Shown here: positions 1 through 10,974 of the stretch, in pieces | Layout of the letters: every line of letters starts with the position of its first letter | Position numbering within the stretch: position 1 is the stretch's first letter | Origin: Candidatus Bathyarchaeota archaeon | Lineage (GTDB): Archaea > Thermoproteota > Bathyarchaeia > Bathyarchaeales > Bathyarchaeaceae | Assembly: GCA_963697165.1 (NCBI GenBank) | Contig: CAVOMX010000013.1 | Span: forward strand, 1 to 15,389 | Length of the DNA stretch: 15,389 nucleotides | Reading direction: 5' to 3' | Made by a program: the position numbers and the translations under genes | The notes under the pieces: generated by a model | The model's input: only the letters and a program-made list of their open reading frames with translations | The model's database searches: none | Told to the model about the DNA's origin: nothing

Positions 1-1177
1 ATATTCCCTTCTCCAGATGCTTCGTGTCCACCACTATGTTGTCGCGTTTGCTGCTCCACTCTGAAAGTGGCATATCCCCAACCTTATGCTTAGAGTTGCT
101 GTAATCGCCCGGAGAATAGAGCATACATCCGCATCGTTCAAGAAACACACTCGCGCCCTCATCATACGCACTTCTGCCAATCCTAGCCAGCAGATAAGCT
201 AGCCGCGGATCAAAAACTGGAATCCTGCCGCTTTTTATCGCAGCATCTCGCACTGTCTCGTACCTGTCTATGTCCTTCCACGTAAACCCGACCATAGCCA
301 AGCCTTCACATTTAGAAAATATGTCGGTTAGGTCTGCTTCCACCTTCTTTTCGTCGTCAGGCTCCTGCTGGTCAATACGTGTTCCTTCACAGAACATTAC
401 ATCAGGCGCAAGACCGCTCAGCTCATCTCCCAAATTATAGCCAGACCTTCCATGAAACCGAACATCTCCAGTATACAGCACCTGAGAATCTTTAGTTTCT
501 ACAAGACAAGCCATAGACCCCGGTATAGAATGATCCACATTAAAGCCCGTAACCATTAACCCATTCTCGATTGTTTTTTGCCTCCTATGTTCCAGATTAC
601 AGAATTCTCGGTTTATCTCTTCTTTTGAGTAATCTACTTTTGGTTCACCGGGAAAAAATCCTGTTTTCAGCGTTCCCATCTCGCGGCCTTTCGTAGCCGT
701 CAACTGTTTATCCAAACTCTGCAAGTTTCCAATCTCAGAAACCGCATCCATCAGCGTCTTTGTCATTTCAGAACACAAAAACGGAAATGCACCCAGATAC
801 GGAGTATAGCCACAATGATCCAGATGCGCATGCGAAATAAACAATGCATCAGGATGCCAAGAACCCGCTTTCACTGCATCCTCAAAACTTTGTACATCTA
901 CTTTCCACAAGTCTTTTGCCCTAACATTGTAACTTTCAAAATCGGTGGGACAAAGGGCATCCTGCCTGTAGACTCCATCTATGCGCGGCAGCAAACCCAG
1001 TTTCAGTAAATCTTGAATTTTGCATCCTGACCGAGGCTGCAGAAACTCTTCAAAAAATAGGCTTTCTTGACTGTATGACAGACCAAAATCTAGGAAGATT
1101 GAGCCTTTATCGAGTTTGGCAAGTATTTTGTTTCCTCCGATATCTGCTACTCCACCGTAACAAGTGAATTTGATCAT
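1..1177 (-). CDS. MBL-fold metallo-hydrolase, RNase J / beta-CASP-like (3' end runs off the window)
   Basis: Not in the ORF track because the stop is outside the window. Manual minus-strand translation from ATG 1177 gives MIKFTCYGGVADIGGNKIL...FLDFG..., ISHAHLDHCG (HxHxDH), VDHSIPGS, YTGDVRFHG and CEGTRI, the MBL motif series of archaeal RNase J-like proteins. Confidence 0.88.
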   Translation of the reverse strand, partial: MIKFTCYGGVADIGGNKILAKLDKGSIFLDFGLSYSQESLFFEEFLQPRSGCKIQDLLKLGLLPRIDGVYRQDALCPTDFESYNVRAKDLWKVDVQSFEDAVKAGSWHPDALFISHAHLDHCGYTPYLGAFPFLCSEMTKTLMDAVSEIGNLQSLDKQLTATKGREMGTLKTGFFPGEPKVDYSKEEINREFCNLEHRRQKTIENGLMVTGFNVDHSIPGSMACLVETKDSQVLYTGDVRFHGRSGYNLGDELSGLAPDVMFCEGTRIDQQEPDDEKKVEADLTDIFSKCEGLAMVGFTWKDIDRYETVRDAAIKSGRIPVFDPRLAYLLARIGRSAYDEGASVFLERCGCMLYSPGDYSNSKHKVGDMPLSEWSSKRDNIVVDTKHLEKGI

Positions 1178-1299
1178 CAACTAGAACCCCACAACAAAAG
1201 TTAGTTCTCAAGAGCCAAATATAAAACATGTCACACCGTCAAAATGCAATAAAGTGATTGAACCTGTCTGAATTGTAATTAAGCAAAAAATCAGATAAC

Positions 1300-1884
1300 C
1301 TACTCACGATTTTTTTCTAGGAACCTATAGATTGCATCGTCATATCGTGCGGTTTCTTTGAAGGCTTCCACAGCCAAAACTTTTCTGTTTTCCACGCTTA
1401 CGTCGCCGTTCTTCTTGTATTCTCTTAGAACTTGACCGTATCTGCTGGGGTTAACGACTACAACAACGTTCTCAAAATTTTTTGCTGCAGCCCTAATCAT
1501 GTTAGGTCCGCCGATGTCAATGTTCTCTAGGGCAGTCTTCATGTCTGCTCCTTGTTCCGTTACCTTTTCAAAGGGATACAGATTACACACAACCAAATCG
1601 ATAGGCTCTATTCCAAACATTTCAAGGTCCTCGATGTGCTCTTTGTTGTCTCTTAGGGCAAGTATGCCGCCCATCAGCTTTGGGTGCTCAGTTTTGACTC
1701 TGCCCTCTAGTATCTCAGAAAATTCAGTGACTTCAGAAACATGTCTAACCAATCGGATTCCCTCCTCTTTTAGAATTTTCAATGTCCCGCCAGTTGAAAT
1801 TATTTCGAATCCCAGTTTGTTGAGTTCTCTAACGAAACTAACAATACCTGTTTTGTCATAGACCGAAATCAGGGCACGCTTCAT
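1300..1884 (-). CDS. purH: IMP cyclohydrolase domain of PurH (MGS-like), stand-alone, ~194 aa
   Basis: MKRALISVYDKTG, STGGT, GRVKTEHP, DLVVCNLYPF and ENIDIGGPNMIRAAAKN match the PurH N-terminal domain. The ORF ends before any transformylase domain. Start moved from 2049 to ATG 1884 (1890 also possible). Confidence 0.9.
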   Translation of the reverse strand: MKRALISVYDKTGIVSFVRELNKLGFEIISTGGTLKILKEEGIRLVRHVSEVTEFSEILEGRVKTEHPKLMGGILALRDNKEHIEDLEMFGIEPIDLVVCNLYPFEKVTEQGADMKTALENIDIGGPNMIRAAAKNFENVVVVVNPSRYGQVLREYKKNGDVSVENRKVLAVEAFKETARYDDAIYRFLEKNRE

Positions 1885-2000
1885 AATCATCAACACCAAC
1901 CAAGGCTCTGTCTTGTTATTAGGTGTAATGAAACAAAAGTCTTTCAACTGCCTTATTTTATGCCAAAAATTAAAAAGGATAACAAAAACATAACAGAAAG

Positions 2001-2034
2001 TGGAAACGGATTCGCTAATATGAATCTGATTCCA
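2001..2034 (+). promoter_or_regulatory. Stem-loop in the probable alba 5' leader
   Basis: TGGAA-A-CGGATTC-GCTAATAT-GAATCTG-A-TTCCA: 12 pairs including one G-U, plus one A/A mismatch, about 40 nt before the RBS. Confidence 0.45.
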
Positions 2035-2085
2035 AGCATGAGACCACAAAGTAGACTTAAAGAAGAAAATAAGGGAGGTGTCTAT

Positions 2086-2361
2086 ATGTCAAAAGACCCA
2101 AACACGATCTATGTTGGAACGAAACCTGCAATGAGCTACGTGCTGGCAGTGATCACCCACTTCAACGAGTCTAGCGCCAAAGATGTTACTTTGAAGGCCA
2201 GAGGAAGAGCAATAACAACAGCTATAGACGTTGTCGAAATAGTCCGCCGCAAGTTTCTAAAAGAACTCAAAACTGCCAAAATCGAAATTGGAACCGAAGA
2301 GCTCCAACGAGAAGACGGAACAAGAAACGTTTCAACAATAGAGATAAACTTGAAGCGCTGA
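2086..2361 (+). CDS. albA: DNA/RNA-binding protein Alba (91 aa)
   Basis: IYVGTKPAMSYVLAV, KARGRAITTAIDVVE and NVSTIEINL are Alba motifs. GGAGGTG RBS at 2074-2080 fixes the start at ATG 2086. Confidence 0.95.
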   Translation: MSKDPNTIYVGTKPAMSYVLAVITHFNESSAKDVTLKARGRAITTAIDVVEIVRRKFLKELKTAKIEIGTEELQREDGTRNVSTIEINLKR

Positions 2362-2393
2362 ACATCCTACAGCCTTTAAGTTTTAAACAAAAA

Positions 2394-2427
2394 TCCCCAT
2401 TTTTGCTTTTATATTTTTTCTGTTTTT
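2394..2427 (+). terminator. Oligo-T terminator of alba
   Basis: TCCCCATTTTTGCTTTTATATTTTTTCTGTTTTT downstream of the alba stop, between convergent genes. Confidence 0.55.
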
Positions 2428-2476
2428 GTCGTAACCCTTTTTGTGGTTGGTACAAGGCTGGAAACGTGTTTTTTGT

Positions 2477-2821
2477 TTAGAAGCTGTCTTGTTTTAGGTA
2501 GTAATCGTCTTCTTTTTTTGCTCCAAAGCTTCTTACGCCCTTTGTCTTCAGCTGTTTTCTAAGTTTTTTCGCGTATTCAGGGCTTATTTCCTGTCTCTTC
2601 TCCAAATAGCAGATTATCTCTTCCGCTTGTTCTGCTTTGTCACATCTACGGAGAAAATCAATCGCATCCGGTGTATAACCAGTAAATTTCTTTGAAACCG
2701 CCTTCTCAGCAGTAGTGAAGTCGGATCGAACCGAATTTATTTTTGTTCCACAGTTTTCACTTGACAGCTCTTGAGCCAAGTTCGGGAACATTTTTTGAAA
2801 CTTTTCCTTTTTGAGGTCCAT
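2477..2821 (-). CDS. DUF2095-family conserved archaeal protein
   Basis: FQKMFPNLAQEL...GYTPDAIDFLRRC...EIICYLEKRQEIS.EYAKKLRKQL...GVRSFG resembles DUF2095 (recognised from memory). Confidence 0.75.
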   Translation of the reverse strand: MDLKKEKFQKMFPNLAQELSSENCGTKINSVRSDFTTAEKAVSKKFTGYTPDAIDFLRRCDKAEQAEEIICYLEKRQEISPEYAKKLRKQLKTKGVRSFGAKKEDDYYLKQDSF

Positions 2822-2942
2822 CTTCAGGGGTTCTCCTTCTAGATGATTAATTACTGTTGTTTGTTGACTTTTGTTCCTGCATTTTTTCTTTGATTGAACC
2901 TATATTTAAATTGTAATCCACATTTTTTCTGAAAGACACTTT

Positions 2943-3565
2943 CTAGTTGGGTACAAACTTTTGAAGCGGATTCTCCTCGAGCGTTCTGGTAAGCTGCTTT
3001 AGGCTCAGACCCTTTCTTAATGTCTCCGTATGTTTCGCATCTTTCTGGTTGCCCCAGATGCTCGGGGCTTCGAACCACAACTTCTACCCCGTCTCCAGAA
3101 GAAAGAAGGACATGAATGTGAAAAGATGACTCTTTTTTGCCATCCTTAGTTACTGAACGCCGCTCTGAACTCTTTGTTTCAAAGTTTTCCTTCTGAAGCT
3201 GATTTACAACCTGAAAGTGATCTTGGGAAAACGTGTGTACGTCTATGTCGCTGTTTTGTCGGGCTGTTCCCCTCCAAACGCTTCCCACAAGACGCGGATT
3301 AAACTCCTTTAGCGCCTCCATAATTTCTTTTGCTTCTCTTCGCATTCTTAGAAGCAGTTCCTTTCTTTGGGTGCCTTCCCTCTCTTCGGCGATTCTGTCA
3401 AGTTCCTCTGCAACCTCAAAGTTGCTGGGAAGAGTTCTGGAGCCTAACGTTTCTGCGGCTCTTTGTTTGGCTTGCATGTACTCTTTTTCTTGGGACGTGT
3501 AGAGCAGCTAGTGCGGCTTCTTGGGCAACTCTGTTTCTTAAAATTTTTGTGCGGTTGCCCTTCAA
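2943..3565 (-). pseudogene. Pol-beta-superfamily nucleotidyltransferase-domain protein with two apparent +1 frameshifts (~3510 and ~3011); may be intact if these are sequencing errors
   Basis: Core LVGSVWRG...SDIDV motif. Removing one base near 3510 joins TTG 3565 (MKGNRTKILRNRVAQEAA) to LLYTSQEKEYMQAK. Removing one base near 3011 gives KKGLSLKQLTRTLEENPLQKFVPN* with the stop at 2943-2945. Confidence 0.8.
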
Positions 3566-3756
3566 AACTATCCCTCAACACTATTTACGTGTGGATGAAA
3601 CTTTTGGATGTTGCTGTCTGTTTTATTCATCAAACGAACTGTTGGCAGACGTGAAAAGAACTAAGCAACACTTGATTACTTTACAAGATAGGTAATTAAA
3701 ACAAAAAAATAGAAGAAAAAAGGTTCGAAATGAAGACTTGACATCAACCTGTGATG

Positions 3757-3894
3757 TTAGTATCTTCTTCGTTTAGCAAAACATTCTCTGCAGTATACAG
3801 GTCTGCTTCCGCTAGGCTTGAATGGAACTTCACATTCTTTGCCGCACTCTGCACATGTTGCTTTATGCATCTCGCGGTTCTCTCTATAAGACAA
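3757..3894 (-). CDS. CxxC-x17-CxxC domain small zinc-finger protein (45 aa)
   Basis: Below the ORF-track size cutoff. MSYRENREMHKATCAECGKECEVPFKPSGSRPVYCRECFAKRRRY*, with a TTG start and a perfect GGAGGTG RBS at 3903-3909. Confidence 0.92.
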   Translation of the reverse strand: MSYRENREMHKATCAECGKECEVPFKPSGSRPVYCRECFAKRRRY

Positions 3895-4032
3895 GTAGCT
3901 TACACCTCCACTTTACTCGAAAAGAACTAGTTTTTATTGAACTCCAATTCTTACGTGTAGACTCAGTTGCTTAATTTCCTTATAACTGTATGCTAAATTT
4001 TGGCGCTAAACTGTTGACTACATGGAAATCTT

Positions 4033-5493
4033 TTAATTGTTTGTGTCTGTGAAGAAAAGTCTTGTTTGTCCCATAGTTTTGATGTCGAGGGCTCTGACAT
4101 TCACCATCACAGGAAAATCGTTAACTGCTTTTCCAATGAGCAGACAGTGATGAGGCGGAAGTTCCTGAGCAATAGACTTCACGGTTTCAGAATCTACTCT
4201 TGCAGCCTTTGAAACGGTTTCCAAATCACGTTCGTTGCTGAAGTTGAAGAGAAAGACGCTGTCGGCTTGGCGATAGATGTTCTCTTTTATTGTGTCAGGC
4301 TGATTAGTCACAAAATTGGTGAACAAACCAAAGTGCCTCATCCGCGTAACGATGTCTTCCCAGTATGTTTCCCTGAGGTAAAGATGTGCCTCCTCTGCAA
4401 ACAGGAAAACAGACTTGATTTTCCATTGACCAAGAATCTTCACAAGATTCCCAAGAGTATACTCCAGCACAATCTGGCGGTCAACCGACGAAACATCCTT
4501 CAGGTTGATTACTAAGGCTCCGCCATCCTTCTTGGTTTTCTCGAAAAGCTGCTCAAAGCTTGTTGCAGACTCTTCGTTGTCTGTGAAAAAGCCTGAATTT
4601 ACGAGGCTGTAGTAACGGGAGAACAGAGCATCCCGCACATGCATGTTACCGCCAGATTGCTTGATTGCTTCTCCAAGACCTTCAAGAGAGATTTTTCTTT
4701 GTTGACACAATGTTTTCCATATGTGTTTAAACTCTCTGGTGGATGTTCCGGGAAGATCCAGAGCGTGAATCATTATCTTCAAAATGACGCTTAAGCCCAT
4801 CTGAGCCAAAGAAACCTTGAAGTTTGCTCCGGGAGTAAGCACATGCACCCTGCTGCTGTACTCGTTGTCTTCTCCCTTAGCGGAAAGACCCATCCCCGTG
4901 TATTCGCCGTTAAGGTCAAGAACCACAACCGTAGCCTTGTAGTCAACAAGACCCAAAACAAGCAGTTTCGAAAGATGAGATTTTCCTGTTCCCTTCTTGC
5001 CGGTTATAATATTTAGTCTTCCGTCGAGGTCATGAGCCGTGATGTTCAAAGGAGAACCATCCTTTGTTTCGCCGATGTTGATGGGAAGCTCTGTGCTGCC
5101 GCCAACATGCGCCAGCAAAGCGTTGATTGGAATTTTTGTGATTCCAGAATTGGAGCGGGAAGGAAGCCACGACGAATTTATGCGTAGTTTATCGTTTAGT
5201 ATTGTTCCTCGAATTTTGCAAATGAGCATACGGGCGTCTTGGATATGATTTATGTGTGATGAGATGCCTAGTGGGTCAAAGCTTTCGCCATAAACCTGTT
5301 CTTCGGTTGTGGAGTCGCGGAGAAGTTCTTCAAGAAGCCCTGGAACACTGGCGAACTGGACGTCGATTACCTGCGTGATCAGTTTCCTGTTGACCATTGT
5401 GTCTTCTACGAGAAGATAGTCGCCTTTCTCAACGTCGTCGCTTGGAGAGCTGAGAATCTGGATGCTGTTTCCTTCTTTCTTGTAGAGCCGCAT
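4033..5493 (-). CDS. herA: HerA/FtsK-like ATPase (DUF87 / helicase HerA family)
   Basis: N-terminal HAS-barrel-like region, Walker A GKKGTGKS, DLNGEY, Walker B FLFAEEAH, RMRHFG and VTNQP. Starts 3 bp after the nurA stop. Confidence 0.88.
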   Translation of the reverse strand: MRLYKKEGNSIQILSSPSDDVEKGDYLLVEDTMVNRKLITQVIDVQFASVPGLLEELLRDSTTEEQVYGESFDPLGISSHINHIQDARMLICKIRGTILNDKLRINSSWLPSRSNSGITKIPINALLAHVGGSTELPINIGETKDGSPLNITAHDLDGRLNIITGKKGTGKSHLSKLLVLGLVDYKATVVVLDLNGEYTGMGLSAKGEDNEYSSRVHVLTPGANFKVSLAQMGLSVILKIMIHALDLPGTSTREFKHIWKTLCQQRKISLEGLGEAIKQSGGNMHVRDALFSRYYSLVNSGFFTDNEESATSFEQLFEKTKKDGGALVINLKDVSSVDRQIVLEYTLGNLVKILGQWKIKSVFLFAEEAHLYLRETYWEDIVTRMRHFGLFTNFVTNQPDTIKENIYRQADSVFLFNFSNERDLETVSKAARVDSETVKSIAQELPPHHCLLIGKAVNDFPVMVNVRALDIKTMGQTRLFFTDTNN

Positions 5494-5496
5494 CTG

Positions 5497-6579
5497 TTAT
5501 CCCTCTGCTCCTTTGCCGAAGGGACCAAAAAGCATCCGCCGCACGTTCGGTCTGGTAACTATCTTGAGTCCATATTGTTGGGCTATGAACCGCTGGATGC
5601 CGATTACTTCGGTGGCTGTGAAGGTTGAGTATATGTGAGCCATCCGTAACGTTTCAGGGTAGCTTTGAATCAGCAGGTCGCTTCCTAGAAGACTCTGAAC
5701 TGCCTCTATGCCCTGTTCTTGTGGAACCTTTTTGTCGATGTCTAACCTGAAGGAGCATACTCCGCGAGTTAGTTTTGCGATGTAGATGTTTCCAAGGAGT
5801 AGAACTGGACCTGAAGATGCTGGAAAATTGTTTATTTGCAGAAGACATGGAGGCACCGCTTTTTCTGCGTAATCTGTTAGTTTGTGACCTGAGAACCTCA
5901 AATTGGTGTTTTTGGAGAATGCTAGGACAGTGTTGAGGCGGTTTCTTGCGATTTCTAGGAGCCGTGACATTTCATCCACGGGGCTGTCAGCCATTCCTGC
6001 TGTCATGGAGCCGTCCCATAGAATGATGGTGCCGTATGTCGAACAGGAGATGCCCAGTTGGAGCCAGCGTTCGAGTAGGTTGCCCATTCTGGCTTGCATA
6101 TTGACGATGTTTGGGGTTTCTGAGAATTCGAAGTGATTGTTTCTGAAGAGTTTGTGGATTTCTTTTTTGTTTTGTTCTGTTATGTGGAATGGGAATGGTC
6201 CTATCCGTTGGTATTTGTATCTGTTTTTTTCTTTCCAGACTATTGCTCCTCTTATTGCGCAGAGTTCGCCTGTTTCGGTTTCTCCTATTCGTATGCTTGA
6301 AACGTCGATAGCAACGACTGGTCTTTCGTTTGTGGTTGGCTGTAGTTGGATTGTCTTTATTGTGGAGGGTTGTTGAATCTTCATGATTGGTGTTGCGTCT
6401 GCAATATGTTCTGTTGCGGGTTGGTTGATTGGGGTTTGGTTGAGTTGTAGGTAACTGCTTTCTATGTTTTTCATGGAGCTTAGGCTTAGTTCTATGAATG
6501 CTTGTGGGAGCTGTAGTTGTTGGATGGAGGGTGGAAATTTATATGTTGGTGTTGTTGTATAGTTTAATTGTTCAATCAA
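5497..6579 (-). CDS. nurA: NurA-family nuclease with a Q/P/T-rich N-terminal extension
   Basis: VVAIDVSS, ILWDGSM, FSKNT and YPETLRMAH follow the NurA motif pattern, and the gene is coupled to herA. Start codon (TTG 6579) is uncertain. Confidence 0.8.
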   Translation of the reverse strand: MIEQLNYTTTPTYKFPPSIQQLQLPQAFIELSLSSMKNIESSYLQLNQTPINQPATEHIADATPIMKIQQPSTIKTIQLQPTTNERPVVAIDVSSIRIGETETGELCAIRGAIVWKEKNRYKYQRIGPFPFHITEQNKKEIHKLFRNNHFEFSETPNIVNMQARMGNLLERWLQLGISCSTYGTIILWDGSMTAGMADSPVDEMSRLLEIARNRLNTVLAFSKNTNLRFSGHKLTDYAEKAVPPCLLQINNFPASSGPVLLLGNIYIAKLTRGVCSFRLDIDKKVPQEQGIEAVQSLLGSDLLIQSYPETLRMAHIYSTFTATEVIGIQRFIAQQYGLKIVTRPNVRRMLFGPFGKGAEG

Positions 6580-6614
6580 TAAGATTCACCAATATGGAAG
6601 TGATTTAGTTGGTG

Positions 6615-6630
6615 CAATATTTAAATATTG
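6615..6630. promoter_or_regulatory. Perfect 16-bp palindrome containing a bidirectional TATA box
   Basis: CAATATTTAAATATTG is its own reverse complement. TTTAAATA reads on both strands, 36 and 45 bp from the two divergent start codons. Confidence 0.7.
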
Positions 6631-6674
6631 TGCATGTGCATCATGAACAATACAATAAACAATAAGGGGAAAGA

Positions 6675-7076
6675 ATGACAGAAACAACAGACCCGCCAAT
6701 CCGCCTAAAAATGAAGGTAGGCAACCTAGAATTCGAAATCGAATGCCAACAAGACCAACTGGAAGAAGCAGTAAAACGAATCCTATCTACAGTAACCGCA
6801 TACTCAAAAGAACCCATGATCATACCCGAACGCCCCCTACCCGCGCCAAGAGCAGAAACCTGCAAAAGCCTTATACAGCAACTCTGGACCGAAGGATGGT
6901 TCTCATCCCCACATGGACTAGGAGAAGTCCACAGCGAAATGGCACGCAAAGGCTTCCACTACGACCGAACAGCAGTAGCCCACGCACTAGTGGACCTAAT
7001 GAAGGAAGGGTTACTGACAAGAGAGGGACAACCACGACGCTACCGCTACGCCCAAAAAAGACCTCCTAGAGCCTAA
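6675..7076 (+). CDS. Hypothetical protein with a C-terminal winged helix-turn-helix domain
   Basis: LW.EGWFSSPHGLGEVHSEM...GFHYDRTAVAHALVDLMKEGLLTREG.PRRYRY is a wHTH pattern. N-terminal IRLKMKVGNLEFEIEC module. AGGGGA RBS-like sequence upstream. Confidence 0.75.
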   Translation: MTETTDPPIRLKMKVGNLEFEIECQQDQLEEAVKRILSTVTAYSKEPMIIPERPLPAPRAETCKSLIQQLWTEGWFSSPHGLGEVHSEMARKGFHYDRTAVAHALVDLMKEGLLTREGQPRRYRYAQKRPPRA

Positions 7077-7099
7077 ACGCCTATCCAATACAGATTTTA

Positions 7100-7353
7100 T
7101 CAGTTAAGGCACTTTGAAGAATCTTTTAGTTCTTTCCACTTGGCAACAAAATCTCGTCCTTACTCGGTTGCCACATATTTTGTTAACTCGTCTTTGATTT
7201 ACAGAAACCCATGTTCTTACATGAAAGAGAGATAATCCTGAAGCATCTTCCCTGACAGATTTGTGCCCTACATAAACCGCTTCTTGGTCTTCGGCTTGAA
7301 CACAAACCAAGAATCTACGCCATAATTTCTATGCGATCTCTCTCACTACTCAT
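7100..7353 (-). pseudogene. Degraded archaeal winged-helix regulator (HTH_45 / COG3432-like)
   Basis: From ATG 7353: MSSERDRIEIMA*ILGLCS / frameshift / KPKTKKRFM*GTNLSGKMLQDYLSFM*EHGFL*IKDELTKYVATE*GRDFVAKWKELKD. Five internal stops (7315, 7268, 7217, 7199, 7160) and one frameshift near 7298. Confidence 0.8.
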
Positions 7354-7546
7354 CGCAATCACAAGAATACACACTCTTTTATCAGTGAAGCATTTTTAAT
7401 GTATCTGTTCTGTATTCCAGTTCGAAAGTAAATTTTCCAGAAAAACACTGCAGATTCCAATTCTAGGCTTAACAATAAAGCCAAGAAGGCTCCAAAAACA
7501 GGTTATTTAACAACCAAAACTAGACAACATGCTATAAAATACGTCT

Positions 7547-7594
7547 AAAAAGTCGCCTAATTACTGTCATGCGACTTTGGTTAGGCAGCTAACC
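7547..7594 (-). terminator. Tandem hairpins plus T-run downstream of the reductase operon
   Basis: Minus strand reads GGTTAG-CTGC-CTAACC, then AAAGTCGC-N14-GCGACTTT ending in TTTTT, about 45 nt after the ferredoxin stop. Confidence 0.45.
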
Positions 7595-7636
7595 CTTGAA
7601 ACTATTGCCAAAAACTAGTTGACCTTTATACTAAGC

Positions 7637-7933
7637 CTATCTTGGTTTCCAGATACATTTTATTGCATTCTGGCTACATGCTTGAATACAAGGCACGCTG
7701 CCGCTTTCAGGTTTGCATGGCGAACAGGTGTATCTGATTTTTTTGCGGTGCTCTTCCGTAACTGCGGCTACCATCTTGTCTTCCAGGTCAATAAACATGG
7801 CTTCCATTTTCAAGGCATTCTGTGGACATTTCTGTATACAGTCGCCGCAGCTGTCGCATTTCTCCGCGTCGATGACTATGTAGTATTCACCTGATCCATC
7901 TTGGTAACCATAATATGTTATAACCTGTATCAC
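7637..7933 (-). CDS. 2[4Fe-4S] ferredoxin, BzdM-like
   Basis: YYGYQDGSGEYYIVID N-terminus, CDSCGDCIQKCP and CSPC-x8-CIQAC. Start moved to GTG 7933 (uncertain) because the track's 8026 start overlaps the upstream gene. Confidence 0.85.
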   Translation of the reverse strand: MIQVITYYGYQDGSGEYYIVIDAEKCDSCGDCIQKCPQNALKMEAMFIDLEDKMVAAVTEEHRKKIRYTCSPCKPESGSVPCIQACSQNAIKCIWKPR

Positions 7934-7937
7934 CCTC

Positions 7938-8840
7938 TCAGCGTTTGAGAGACTTCTCATATAATGCCTTGGCGAATAGGGCAGCTCCAATAGCGCCTGC
8001 GGAAGCGGGGTCCCGGCCAGTTTCATTCAAGTCTGGAACTGGAAGTCGCTTTACGCCCAGTATGTTCTCCACTCTGTGGACTAATCCGATGTTTTTGGAT
8101 TGTCCACCAGTTATTACGAAGTCTTTTTCGCAGCCCACCTTTTCTATGAGTTCGCTCATTCTGACAGCCATGGCTCTGATATATGACGCTAACACCTTCT
8201 CTTTAGACCATCCCTTACGCAATAGCCCAACTGCCTCTGTTTTCGCGAATACAACACAGGTGCTGCTAACAGGCTCAGGTTCCTCAGTTACTCTCAGGGA
8301 TACTTTGCCAACATCTTCGATGGGTATCTTCAACAAGTCAGCGATGACTTCCATTCCTCGTCCCGTGCCAGCTGCACACTTGTCGTTCATCAGAAAAGAT
8401 ACAACTTTGCCGTTCTCGTCGCAGCGAATAGCTTTGACGTCCTGCCCGCCAACATCCAGCACCGTTCTTACGGATTGTCCCCAGATGTAGTTGGCGCCTT
8501 TGGCGTGGCATGCAATTTCTGTGATGGCTCTGTTAGCCATGGGAACATTAACTCGTCCGTAACCAGTTCCCACAATATAATTGAAGTCTTTTAACGTCAA
8601 TCCAGTGTTTTCCATTGCCCACCCAAGCGCTTTATTTGCGCTATCAGAGCTGTTTGAGCCAGTTCGCATTACGCTCCACGCGTATATCTCCCCATCAGCC
8701 ATGATTACCGCCTTAGAACCCACTGAACCAACGTCGACCCCAGCGGTTATTACTTCAGCATTCTTCCAGTTCATGTTTGGCATAACTCGTTGATACTCGA
8801 GCCATCTCCAGTAATCCATTTTTCCATTGTTTTTCTCCAT
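7938..8840 (-). CDS. bzdQ: ATP-dependent activator subunit, benzoyl-CoA reductase BzdQ-like (BcrAD/BadFG ASKHA family)
   Basis: YWRW...ITAGVDVGSVGSK N-terminus recalled as typical of BzdQ; GTGYGR, EIACHAKGA, DVGGQD, MNDKCAAGTGRG and SSTCVVFA (two cluster Cys). Confidence 0.85.
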   Translation of the reverse strand: MEKNNGKMDYWRWLEYQRVMPNMNWKNAEVITAGVDVGSVGSKAVIMADGEIYAWSVMRTGSNSSDSANKALGWAMENTGLTLKDFNYIVGTGYGRVNVPMANRAITEIACHAKGANYIWGQSVRTVLDVGGQDVKAIRCDENGKVVSFLMNDKCAAGTGRGMEVIADLLKIPIEDVGKVSLRVTEEPEPVSSTCVVFAKTEAVGLLRKGWSKEKVLASYIRAMAVRMSELIEKVGCEKDFVITGGQSKNIGLVHRVENILGVKRLPVPDLNETGRDPASAGAIGAALFAKALYEKSLKR

Positions 8841-8844
8841 CAAT

Positions 8845-9627
8845 TTATTGCCTCCTTCCAGCTCTTTTGGCGGCGATTAAGGCTGCTCCTACTGCGCCGG
8901 CATACAGTGGTTCTTCAGGTATCAGTATGTCCATTCCCATTCGTCTCTTAAGAGAAGCAACAAAACCGACATCTTTGGCCGCTCCTCCCACAAGCACAAT
9001 ATCCTGATTTATTCCCAACCGATGCACCATAGAGGAGACCCTCTCAGCCATGGCATCAAAGATTGCCCTTGCGATTTCGCTCTTTGGTTCTTCCCTATGA
9101 ATCAAAGAAACCACATCAGACTCCGCGAAGATGACACAACTAGCATTTATTGGGCTTGCCCGCTCTGCCTTCAAAGCCAATGAACCCATATCCTCCAAAT
9201 CCACTTCCAATGCTCTAGCCATTGCCTCGATGAAGGTGCCGGCTCCGGCTGCACACCGGGCATTCACAACAAAATCCAGAAGTACTCCATTTTCGTCACA
9301 CTTAACTGCCCGCGCATCCTCAGCCCCAACATCTACCACTGTTCTGGCTGAAGAAAAAAAGTAGGCTCCTGCTCTGGCGTCTGCTCCCATCATGCTTATA
9401 CTGCTATCTGCGAATGGAGCCATCTTAACGCCTGCGCCAGTTGCCGTAACATGCTGTATGTCTGTGCGGGACAGCTTTGCGTTCTGCAGTGCCTCTTCGA
9501 AGGCTTGTTCAGCAGCTTTTGTAGGTTCGAATCCTGAAAATTGTTGGCACTGAGCTATTATTTGTTTGTCTTTCAGAATTGCCACCTTCACCCTTTGGGT
9601 GCCCATGTCTATTCCAGCGGATATCAT
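8845..9627 (-). CDS. bzdP: ATP-dependent activator subunit, BzdP-like (BcrAD/BadFG ASKHA family)
   Basis: AGIDMG, ATGAG, DVGAED, NARCAAGAGTFIEAMARAL and NASCVIFAESDVVSLIH. Confidence 0.8.
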   Translation of the reverse strand: MISAGIDMGTQRVKVAILKDKQIIAQCQQFSGFEPTKAAEQAFEEALQNAKLSRTDIQHVTATGAGVKMAPFADSSISMMGADARAGAYFFSSARTVVDVGAEDARAVKCDENGVLLDFVVNARCAAGAGTFIEAMARALEVDLEDMGSLALKAERASPINASCVIFAESDVVSLIHREEPKSEIARAIFDAMAERVSSMVHRLGINQDIVLVGGAAKDVGFVASLKRRMGMDILIPEEPLYAGAVGAALIAAKRAGRRQ

Positions 9628-9639
9628 TTCTTGTTCTCC

Positions 9640-10974
9640 TCAAATGTCGATACGGGCTTCCAGCATCTCTAGGAATGCTTCAACTCTTGTCTTCATCTGT
9701 CCCACATCTTCCCTGGTGTATTCCGTGTCAAGGTAATACACGGGTATATTCATGCGGTCTAGGACACGCTTGATTCGCGCGTACTCCATGGCATAGAGAA
9801 TGCACCCTCGAACTACGTAATAAATTACTCCGTCAACCTTGTATTCTTTGATTCGATCCATAATCCAGTTCACGCGGTCCTCGTTTCCATGTTCTGATGT
9901 GAAGCAGGGGCATGTGCATGCCATGATGTATCGTTCGCTTATGGCATCTAGCATGTCGCTCATTGTCCATTCATCTACTCCAACGGGATCAAAGAGAATT
10001 CTGTCCCCCGAACATTGTTCATCAATAACCACTACTCCCTGGGGGTTAGATTCTTCAATCAGGTTAGGAACCTTCCAGCTGTCTGGCCATAACATTGGGG
10101 TTCCTGTAATCATCACTCTTGGTGTGTCAGGATGAGAAGAATACTCTTTTTGTTCAACCCGTTTTTCTAGTTCCTCGCACAACTCGTTCACCTTTTGTGT
10201 CCAACGTTCAATGTTGTCCCAGAGACTAGTTTGGTTCACAAGCATGGCATCTCTTCCATTGATTACTGGAGCTCCTTTCCGTATTTCCTGTAGCCTACGA
10301 AAAGCCTTTGTTGCTTTCTGCATAGTCTCTATTGCGTCTTTAAGTTTTTTTCTGGTGATCTTGTTTCCTGTCAGTTTCTCAATTTTTTCTTTTATTACAA
10401 TTAAATCTTTTTTCCACATTGTCAAAGTGTGGGGATCATCTTTGACGCGTGGAGGATTCATGACCCATATTGGTTTGTAGTCTGACAGGATTTCGCTCAG
10501 TTTGGTTCTACCATCGCATGTCAGAGGGTTTATTATGGCATCGCTGAGCTCAAGATATGGGGACAGGCTCACCATCTTTGCGCCGACCGTTGATCTTATA
10601 ACGGGGCAGACTTCAACGGGCATGATTCTGTCTCCCAGTTTTGCTGTGTCATACCATCCTGAACCTATACGAACCGGAATGGCGCCGGCGGCCAAAATCA
10701 GTTCGATCGGAGCGAGAATGCAGGAGTAGCCGATGACCTTTTTTCCCGTTTCTTTTTGTTCACGAATCTCTTTTTCGCGTTGCCCAAACAAGTTTGAGAT
10801 TTCATCAAAATATTCCATGGCTTTCGGTCGGTTCTTCCATGTTTTTTTCATTCTTTCAATGTTTTCTTTGATCACTTTCATGGATACTGCTTTGATCGAG
10901 TTTCTAAGTTCCTCGATTTCTGTCTTGGACATATCAGGAATATATTTTGTTCCTTTTTCGATTTCGCTTGCCAT
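9640..10974 (-). CDS. 2-hydroxyacyl-CoA dehydratase D (HgdD) family Fe-S protein, double-cubane cluster reductase-like
   Basis: GYSC85, PIELILAAGAIPVR, EVC123P, LTC153DG, EQC321SG, C353TC355PC357, RGC391 and C-terminal TEY...GQMKTRVEAFLE. AAGGGG RBS upstream. Confidence 0.85.
   Translation of the reverse strand: MASEIEKGTKYIPDMSKTEIEELRNSIKAVSMKVIKENIERMKKTWKNRPKAMEYFDEISNLFGQREKEIREQKETGKKVIGYSCILAPIELILAAGAIPVRIGSGWYDTAKLGDRIMPVEVCPVIRSTVGAKMVSLSPYLELSDAIINPLTCDGRTKLSEILSDYKPIWVMNPPRVKDDPHTLTMWKKDLIVIKEKIEKLTGNKITRKKLKDAIETMQKATKAFRRLQEIRKGAPVINGRDAMLVNQTSLWDNIERWTQKVNELCEELEKRVEQKEYSSHPDTPRVMITGTPMLWPDSWKVPNLIEESNPQGVVVIDEQCSGDRILFDPVGVDEWTMSDMLDAISERYIMACTCPCFTSEHGNEDRVNWIMDRIKEYKVDGVIYYVVRGCILYAMEYARIKRVLDRMNIPVYYLDTEYTREDVGQMKTRVEAFLEMLEARIDI

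Follow-up and report, generated by a model that had tools for sequence, protein, structure and literature searches.

The window analysed here is contig CAVOMX010000013.1 of the Candidatus Bathyarchaeota assembly GCA_963697165.1, 15,389 nucleotides long and one of the 25 contigs of a 1.99-Mb genome rated 81% complete. Two transcription units stand back to back in it: on the minus strand an operon for a NurA-fold nuclease and a HerA-type ATPase, on the plus strand a gene for a small protein with a winged-helix-like domain (the winged helix-turn-helix, or wHTH, gene). Where the two units meet, the plus strand turns from G+T-rich to A+C-rich more sharply than anywhere else in the genome. An initial annotation of this DNA had attributed the flip to a mutational process anchored at a palindrome between the genes, perhaps a recurrently broken site. 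We argue, tentatively, that it is an extreme instance of skew patches that are bounded by genes and occur throughout the genome. The principal features are as follows.

4033..5493, minus strand: herA-type ATPase gene, second gene of the operon, 486 amino acids, with a Pfam match to the DUF87/HerA central domain (6.3e-16)
5497..6579, minus strand: NurA-fold nuclease gene (nurA), 360 amino acids, with a TTG start at 6579
6054..6659, no strand assigned: left arm of the flip, 606 nt, in which every 300-nt window is at least 68% G+T on the plus strand
6675..7076, plus strand: wHTH gene, which is also the right arm of the flip; 133-amino-acid protein with a C-terminal winged-helix-like domain

The product of nurA has no sequence match in Pfam, NCBIfam or the PDB by sequence and profile searches; the Pfam NurA model PF09376 matches neither this protein, at E values up to 10, nor anything else in the genome. 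Its AlphaFold model (pLDDT 76, pTM 0.76) finds Sulfolobus solfataricus NurA as the top PDB fold match (2ygk_A, E 9.2e-09, TM 0.52/0.58 over 312 columns), and T. kodakarensis HerA-NurA (9x1n) and TdpAB are also among the fold matches. Since the model best matches NurA and a HerA-type ATPase is encoded immediately downstream, the label nurA-herA holds at the level of the predicted fold, and the earlier observation that genes for end-processing proteins adjoin the flip was right. Five acidic residues of the protein are invariant (D92, E100, D189, D280 and D282). The herA gene begins 4 nt past the nurA stop codon, a pairing kept in 18 of 18 fetched relatives, and its product matches PADLOC and NCBIfam HerA models; the top NCBIfam row is an anti-phage HerA model, with a score far under its cut-off.

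The wHTH protein is harder to place. Its model (pLDDT 69) contains a C-terminal three-helix unit (residues 63-72, 82-91 and 98-110) in which no wing is modelled, and its Pfam matches are all sub-threshold (Penicillinase_R 0.011, MCM_C 0.045, GntR 0.15). Foldseek returned nothing at E 0.001 or better; the rows obtained, to the Bacillus subtilis replication terminator protein and to the winged helices of Fur, GntR and ORC, have E values of 0.26 or worse and were given no weight. Nor could either the NurA-like or the wHTH protein be assigned to a family from its sequence: Pfam, NCBIfam, the PDB (sequence and profile) and PADLOC gave nothing significant. The wHTH gene is covered by assembled contigs from all four RNA libraries, none of which extends over 7100-7470: a contig of library X20 ends at 7081, an X18 alignment stops at 7083 and X17 has loose ends at 7077 and 7082. 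These contigs carry neither starts nor strand, their depth cannot rank genes, and their ends near 7077-7083 are not evidence of a transcript end.

The arrangement of herA-nurA opposite wHTH recurs in each of 18 fetched relatives, which represent 12 families of the order, and the nurA-wHTH pair in 51 of 61 Bathyarchaeia loci, the remaining ten being without flanking sequence. With these queries neither protein was found in three genomes of the same genus (G005, G010 and G016), of which G005 is closed, 2.2 Mb long and 97% complete; the module may therefore be dispensable within the genus. Genes for mre11 and rad50 do not stand beside nurA-herA among the open reading frames (ORFs) of the window and were not searched for elsewhere, and 5900-7700 contains no known RNA family at E values up to 1.

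The first issue is the size of the flip. Recounting gave exactly the figures first obtained by hand: 92 of 120 nucleotides are G+T at 6361-6480 on the plus strand, and 84 of 120 are A+C at 6721-6840. Across the genome, 16,585 non-overlapping 120-nt windows have a mean keto (G+T) fraction of 0.499 with a standard deviation of 0.073; seven of them reach 92/120 G+T and 84 reach 84/120 A+C. A scan of the keto fraction on the left minus that on the right placed the locus first in the genome at all five settings of length (L) and gap: 0.492 at L120/gap 240, 0.421 at L240/gap 240 (one of four genome peaks of at least 0.35), 0.41 at position 6622 at L300/gap 100, 0.387 at position 6609 at L400/gap 100 (runner-up 0.288, standard deviation 0.059) and 0.356 at L500/gap 100. 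No other flip is as strong. The maximum falls at 6609-6622 in the three gap-100 settings, in agreement with the turning point near 6620 that had been judged by eye, and at 6561 and 6679 in the other two. The left arm spans nurA codons 1 to about 170 and most of the intergenic spacer, with a GC skew of +0.15 to +0.56 and an AT skew of -0.30 to -0.53; in the right arm the corresponding values are -0.20 and +0.37 to +0.45. The impression that the skew fades with distance was correct for the left arm only: on the right it ends at the wHTH stop codon.

Both coding strands are rich in A and C, and the bias lies at synonymous sites, as had been proposed. The wHTH gene is 66% A+C, and 112 of its 134 codons, counting the stop, end in A or C (A 69, C 43, G 17, T 5), which places it third among 1694 ORFs; in its first 50 codons the third letters are A 29, C 14, G 6 and T 1, the 43 A/C-ending codons and single T of the original count. 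From amino acids alone about 0.55 of degenerate codons would be expected to end in A or C. The observed fraction is 0.881 in the wHTH gene (z=7.6) and 0.89 in nurA codons 1-170 (z=8.6); it drops to 0.69 in nurA codons 171-360 (z=4.1), and in herA, at 0.542 against 0.543 expected (z=0), synonymous sites are unskewed. Third positions of the arms are A.52, C.32-.33, G.07-.13 and T.04-.08, as against.31/.22/.19/.28 in the genome, and the first positions of nurA codons 1-168 are likewise shifted to A and C. Amino-acid composition was rejected as the cause, the expected values having a standard deviation of 0.008 compared with 0.106 observed. A protein-binding array was rejected as the source of the pattern: neither CAA, ACA, AAC nor G/T has a 10-11-nt periodicity, and only the 3-nt period is seen.

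Ordinary translational selection, with A/C-ending codons optimal and both genes very highly expressed, is a further candidate explanation, and RNA-library contigs do cover the wHTH gene in four of four libraries. Thermosome, Alba and some ribosomal-protein genes also lie slightly above the mean (0.58-0.66), yet such markers fall far short of the 0.84-0.89 seen here. Eight of 11 Pfam matches to thermosome, EF-Tu-domain (EF1A-like) and Orc1/Cdc6 families on called ORFs of this genome have A/C-ending fractions of 0.45-0.59. As the L2 family was not found in this genome (81% complete), ribosomal-protein genes were taken from the closed chromosome of a congener, G024, which was analysed whole; its L2, L23, L4 and L3 genes stand at 0.47-0.66. 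They occupy 1175363-1178981 of that chromosome (contig C1), only some 12 kb from its own herA-nurA-wHTH module. Against translational selection, moreover, herA of the same operon is at 0.54, the bias shifts inside nurA, intergenic spacers carry it too, and some lineages write the same gene in G/T-ending codons. High expression does not explain the patches; translational selection is largely refuted, and we regard it as very improbable.

The flip is not alone. Sixty-eight segments of at least 300 nt in this genome are at least 68% one-sided, the left arm being one of them, and the autocorrelation of keto skew falls to about zero by 1.6-3 kb, with no long-range term, in this genome and in G024. 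Across genes the standard deviation of the A/C-ending fraction is 0.102, compared with 0.048 for purine content and 0.055 for GC content at third positions: the keto/amino contrast is the main synonymous axis of variation in this genome. The AT and CG skews of third positions correlate (r=0.67 genome-wide). The skew acts on DNA or transcript and is not a matter of codon choice, because the skew of intergenic spacers correlates with that of the genes on either side (r=0.39, n=178) and first codon positions track third positions (r=0.46). Of 50 flips with |f| of 0.20 or more, 48 fall on gene borders or gaps, in both polarities; at divergent junctions ten have the polarity of our locus and two the opposite. 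Gene 5' ends are more A/C-ending than 3' ends (0.552 vs 0.518, p=6e-5), operon-internal genes included. The A/C-ending fraction is also heritable, with r=0.55 over 945 orthologue pairs between this genome and G024, among which the wHTH gene ranks first by the lower of the two species' values. Patches thus exist genome-wide, end at gene borders, touch third and first positions and spacers, and are conserved between species. What had been seen as a site-anchored, strand-asymmetric process is indeed a strand-asymmetric pressure on synonymous sites, recurring in orthologues; it is not special to the site.

One region of contrary bias stands apart. At about 68-83 kb of contig C22 the genes of one cluster, on both strands, all favour G/T-ending codons (A/C-ending 0.20-0.33). 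Bias there follows coding sense and not DNA strand, for which reason the cluster may form an island of DNA that is foreign or is treated differently.

Orthologous loci across Bathyarchaeia carry the skew as well. Neither of the two findings that would have told against the initial reading, equally strong flips at most divergent promoters of this genome or orthologues free of the skew, was made. The 5' 500 nt of nurA are at least 58% keto on the plus strand in 49 of 51 loci. On the right, all 19 profiled loci lose the skew at the wHTH stop codon, with successive mean A+C values of 61, 64, 52, 59 and finally 49%; on the left it stops within nurA or, in some lineages, continues for 1.9 kb (range 0.6-1.9 kb). 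Among 15 sequences of the genus the A/C-ending fraction of nurA holds a plateau of 0.80-0.87 over codons 0-160 and then declines. In G024 the orthologous flip ranks 5th, 9th and 6th at three gap-100 scales and falls outside the top ten at a fourth. The wHTH gene is the more variable partner: its A/C-ending fraction ranges from 0.13 to 0.96 across lineages for essentially the same protein. An extreme is the contig L091, from a Bathyarchaeia metagenome-assembled genome, where wHTH is 86% G/T-ending and the 5' end of nurA keeps an A/C-ending fraction of 0.86. This contig is a codon mosaic throughout 399-5618 (A/C-ending: herA 0.39, nurA 0.74, wHTH 0.14); along a convergent HD-like gene downstream the fraction climbs from 0.42 to 0.95, and it is 0.82 in a nucleotidyltransferase-like gene that has stretches at 0.96. 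Comparison of low- with high-skew members of the genus gives directional differences of G>A 203, T>C 144, T>A 56 and G>C 37, with 21, 32, 12 and 3 in reverse.

The explanation we favour, though we put it a little below an even chance, is that the flip is an extreme, promoter-abutting pair of gene-bounded, kilobase-scale skew patches, probably mutational in origin and reinforced by selection on the nurA leader. A persistent strand-asymmetric mutation pressure of transition type, bounded by transcription units, would create the patches; seen from the template strand its net effect would be C>T and A>G, which is the same as G>A and T>C seen from the sense strand. In nurA it would be joined by selection that keeps the 5' coding leader, downstream of a weak TTG start, poor in G and U. 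The mirror image arises because two sense-A/C-rich transcription units sit back to back; a break, an origin or a terminus would be unnecessary for the flip.

The nature of the selective component deserves attention, for selection on the message might account for more than the leader. A/C-rich, G/U-poor coding RNA cannot pair with itself, and both messenger RNAs – above all the first 500 or so nucleotides of the nurA-herA message behind its weak TTG – might be kept unstructured, either so that they are translated efficiently or so that the wHTH protein or an RNA-binding factor can control them. The nurA 5' skew in 49 of 51 loci holds whatever the state of the neighbouring genes. Over nurA codons 0-80 synonymous divergence is lowered, to 0.36-0.53 of saturation; at four-fold sites it is about 0.7 of saturation in both arms, the same as in herA (15 genus sequences). 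In the conserved TTTP codons near the N terminus third positions hardly vary within the class, the TTG start is kept together with its GGTGA site in 54 of 55 loci, the weak 5'-to-3' gradient in A/C-ending codons is genome-wide and extends to operon-internal genes, and the right arm stops at a stop codon. Set against this account are the range of the wHTH gene, from 0.13 to 0.96 with essentially the same protein and with ordinary synonymous divergence, the skew carried by intergenic spacers, and the existence of real genes with strong G/T-ending bias. Known start-proximal zones of structure avoidance are, besides, far shorter than 170 codons. As a full explanation we consider message-level selection unlikely, if worth keeping in view. 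Its narrower form fares better: the skew of 49 of 51 loci, the lowered divergence over codons 0-80, the near-invariant TTTP third positions and the genomic gradient together suggest nucleotide-level selection on the nurA 5' coding leader beyond the general pressure.

What lies at the turning point itself was examined in an alignment of the 130 nt upstream of the wHTH start from 55 loci. The elements are these.

6585..6590, minus strand: ribosome-binding site GGTGAA (TTCACC on the plus strand), 6 nt before the nurA TTG start, in 54 of 55 loci
6615..6630, no strand assigned: perfect 16-nt palindrome CAATATTTAAATATTG
6618..6626, no strand assigned: TATA-box-like element TATTTAAAT, as TAT[AT]TAA[AG]T in 54 of 55 aligned loci
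6648..6669, plus strand: conserved wHTH leader CAATACAATAAACAATAAGGGG, as CAAT[AT]CAA[TC]A in 52 of 55 loci

The palindrome matches the genome once at up to one mismatch, so that a dispersed palindrome family was rejected, and a perfect palindrome of at least 14 nt at the TATA-like box is present in just 2 of the 55 loci. Judged from the aligned letters, the palindrome is the TATA-box region and the conserved element is the TATA box; an anchoring of the skew to the palindrome is not supported. The TATA-like box stands 39 nt away from the start of nurA and 49 nt away from that of wHTH, and is probably shared by both divergent promoters. The GGTGAA site presumably pairs with the 3' end of 16S RNA. 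Further conserved boxes of the spacer region are TTGTTCAATCAA, ATTGTGCATG and CAATACAATAAACAAT, and GTTG[TC]GCATG is found in 47 of 55 loci; the wHTH leader and the ATTGTGCATG box upstream of it may together form an operator or a ribosome-binding region. Two boxes resemble each other, TTGTTCAATCAA at 6567-6578 on the nurA side and ATG[AT][AT]CAATACAA at 6641-6653 on the wHTH side: they have one orientation, occur class-wide and flank the TATA box about 75 nt apart, which makes them candidate operators for the winged-helix protein. The 95-nt spacer as a whole (6580-6674) is unskewed, at 0.516 A+C.

These results bear directly on the proposal that the DNA between the genes is recurrently broken. 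Resection from 5' to 3', perhaps by HerA-NurA itself, would leave single-stranded 3' tails, and deamination of these tails (C>T, A>G) would write G and T on the plus strand to the left and on the minus strand to the right. The polarity fits; directional differences are mostly transitions of both kinds, as damage of single-stranded type on the G/T-rich strand would give; the arms are of suitable length (about 0.4-0.6 kb); genes for a NurA-fold nuclease and a HerA-type ATPase adjoin; and the flip is the strongest of the genome. Yet the conserved element at the centre is a TATA box and not the palindrome, the spacer is unskewed, and four-fold-site divergence in the arms is not above that of herA. 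Further points against it are these: the right arm halts at the stop codon in 19 of 19 loci while the left runs for 0.6-1.9 kb, the wHTH gene of L091 has its skew reversed while nurA retains its own, and 48 of 50 strong flips in the genome are at gene borders, in both polarities. We therefore disfavour a recurrent break and think it improbable.

Another reading makes the locus a landmark of replication: an origin whose local skew is inverted, a zone of fork convergence, or a dif-like site to which polar words made of G and T only (GTTG, the ASPS of Thermococcales) would point, to be read by a HerA-type translocase. GTTG does aim at the centre from both sides (on the outward strands CAAC occurs 23 times and GTTG once), and the polarity is that of converging forks. 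According to Cortez et al. (2010, PMC2958812), GTTG is the polar word that has its peak at dif in Pyrococcus; they also cite an older proposal by which HerA would be a functional analogue of FtsK. The chromosome of G024, however, lacks the corresponding pattern: the cumulative curves for keto, GC, AT and GTTG run irregularly, and their extrema, at 385, 1399, 1444, 1527 and 1552 kb (the GTTG peak at 1444 kb), all fall away from the locus at 1163 kb. The Orc1/Cdc6 genes of G024, at 98 and 1438 kb, are 275 kb or more distant from it. In the genome under study Cdc6_C matches are on other contigs (C24 and C8). The skew reaches only about 0.5 kb to either side, the GTTG excess is just 1.9 times the expectation from composition, a conserved 11-6-11 inverted repeat is absent from the 55-locus alignment, and a search of the closed genome G005 did not turn up the module. 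Repeats at the locus are short and at chance level (no ORB model was used). An oriC was rejected on the lack of an adjacent orc1/cdc6, the terminus-type local polarity and the absence of a chromosome-scale switch in G024, and a Xer/dif site on the palindrome, which is unique in the genome and has TATTTAAAT as its core, but is present in 2 of 55 loci and does not lie at the GTTG summit. Neither an origin nor fork convergence thus survives, and of a replication landmark here we would say that it is scarcely credible.

A region elsewhere in the genome deserves mention. Within 7 kb of contig C24 (about 30.6-37.1 kb) are an Orc1/Cdc6 match (30627-30902), a second DUF87/HerA-type ATPase gene (34496-35134), a 412-nt G/T-rich segment free of ORFs (36625-37036) and a strong keto flip near 37.1 kb; this may be an origin region.

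Several observations weigh against our explanation by gene-bounded, mainly mutational patches and temper the confidence with which it is held. ORFs were called by a home-made procedure (ATG-first, at least 100 amino acids), and skewed DNA gives spurious ORFs on both strands; restricting the analysis to a strict set of 644 genes, validated by divergence from G024 dominated by third positions, reduces this problem without removing it. In that set the A/C-ending fraction has a mean of 0.53 and a standard deviation of 0.10 with both tails populated, and the distribution is symmetric around 0.53 (20 of 644 genes at 0.33 or below, 11 at 0.73 or above), so that a simple rule by which the sense strand becomes A/C-rich fails for many real genes. 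G/T-ending examples include ORFs that we take to be FtsY-, NAD-kinase- and CobS-like, names read off the sequences without a search. The A/C-ending fractions of neighbouring genes correlate at +0.50 in tandem and at -0.23 (not significant) when divergent; for convergent neighbours r=-0.48 (n=38), a value easier to reconcile with domains at strand level, or with read-through, than with a rule applied gene by gene. The plateau of the left arm stops at about codon 160-200, inside nurA and not at a transcript end. Equilibrium composition cannot separate mutation bias from selection as the cause that maintains the patches, and resection tails, disfavoured as they are, would give exactly this polarity and transition spectrum.

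Comparison with known systems is instructive. The closest likeness is to GRINS, bacterial elements described mostly from polyketide synthase genes of Streptomyces as repeats whose copies are more than 80% identical and undergo gene conversion (PMC8256042; the word 'archaea' is absent from the main text of that paper). Like our locus they have GC and TA skews that are intense, correlated and most pronounced at third codon positions, in patches 0.3-1.4 kb long; a single strand carries both polarities within about 1 kb, the sequences encode functional proteins, C+A-rich parts are shifted to Pro, Thr, His and Gln, and the mechanism is unexplained. Unlike GRINS, the arms occur once each (a genome-wide blastn search with the two recovers nothing but themselves), and the genes are single-copy archaeal genes whose patches are kept at orthologous positions across the class. 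The replication-associated asymmetries of Thermococcales, with their ASPS and dif (Cortez et al., PMC2958812), have in common with the locus the keto/amino axis, the GTTG word and terminus polarity. They extend over whole chromosomes and change sign at oriC and the terminus, as against a correlation length of 1-3 kb here and no pattern at chromosome scale in G024. Selection for cheap nucleotides in transcripts, as proposed by Chen et al. (2016, PMC4844684), offers likewise a selective account of strand-specific synonymous skew in transcribed DNA; it favours U and C at synonymous sites, whereas here U is the most depleted letter, at 4-8% of third positions.

HerA-NurA end-resection operons and archaeal divergent promoters share with the locus the order of a NurA-fold gene followed by a herA-type gene and a TATA spacing that suits two outward promoters; they differ from it in that here the divergent partner is a conserved small winged-helix gene, mre11 and rad50 are not adjacent in the window, and the nuclease falls short of the Pfam NurA model. 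Full-text literature searches, judged by titles and abstracts, turned up no account of this gene pair or locus, nor of skew patches like these in archaea. In bacteria, transcription-associated mutational asymmetry takes the form of C>T on the non-transcribed strand. Common to that process and to the patches are bounds set by the gene or transcription unit, an effect on synonymous sites and a dominance of transitions; the polarity here is opposite, with the sense strand A/C-rich, and it is not uniform, many genes being G/T-rich in sense.

Two further stretches of the window may be recorded. An Alba-family gene at 1960-2361 (Pfam 5.9e-19) has an N-terminal extension of about 45 residues in the called ORF and a moderately raised A/C-ending fraction of 0.66. 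The interval 7938-10974 holds two BcrAD/BadFG-type ATPase genes and an upstream gene of 444 amino acids, with a ferredoxin gene adjoining (7637-8026).

Strand skews are usually read as marks of replication or of transcription-coupled deamination, and the main synonymous axis of this genus fits neither: the skew switches every 1-3 kb at gene borders and is inherited at orthologous positions, and a protein that one lineage encodes with 96% of codons ending in A or C is encoded by another with 87% ending in G or T. A wider conjecture, which we consider possible but doubtful, is that Bathyarchaeia chromosomes are tiled by heritable, gene-bounded patches of G/T versus A/C – a non-repeat archaeal counterpart of GRINS – produced by an undescribed strand-specific process of damage or repair tied to transcription units, whose strongest footprint in this genome falls on the promoter-proximal half-kilobases of the HerA-NurA operon and of its divergent winged-helix partner. 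If the patches are mutational they point to an unknown archaeal strand-specific process, possibly the one behind the bacterial GRINS; if selective, they point to an unrecognised layer of control at the level of the message. In practical terms the patches yield spurious ORFs on both strands, look like origins and termini when skew is plotted locally, and mislead predictions of expression or horizontal transfer made from codon usage, in archaea that are abundant in sediments.

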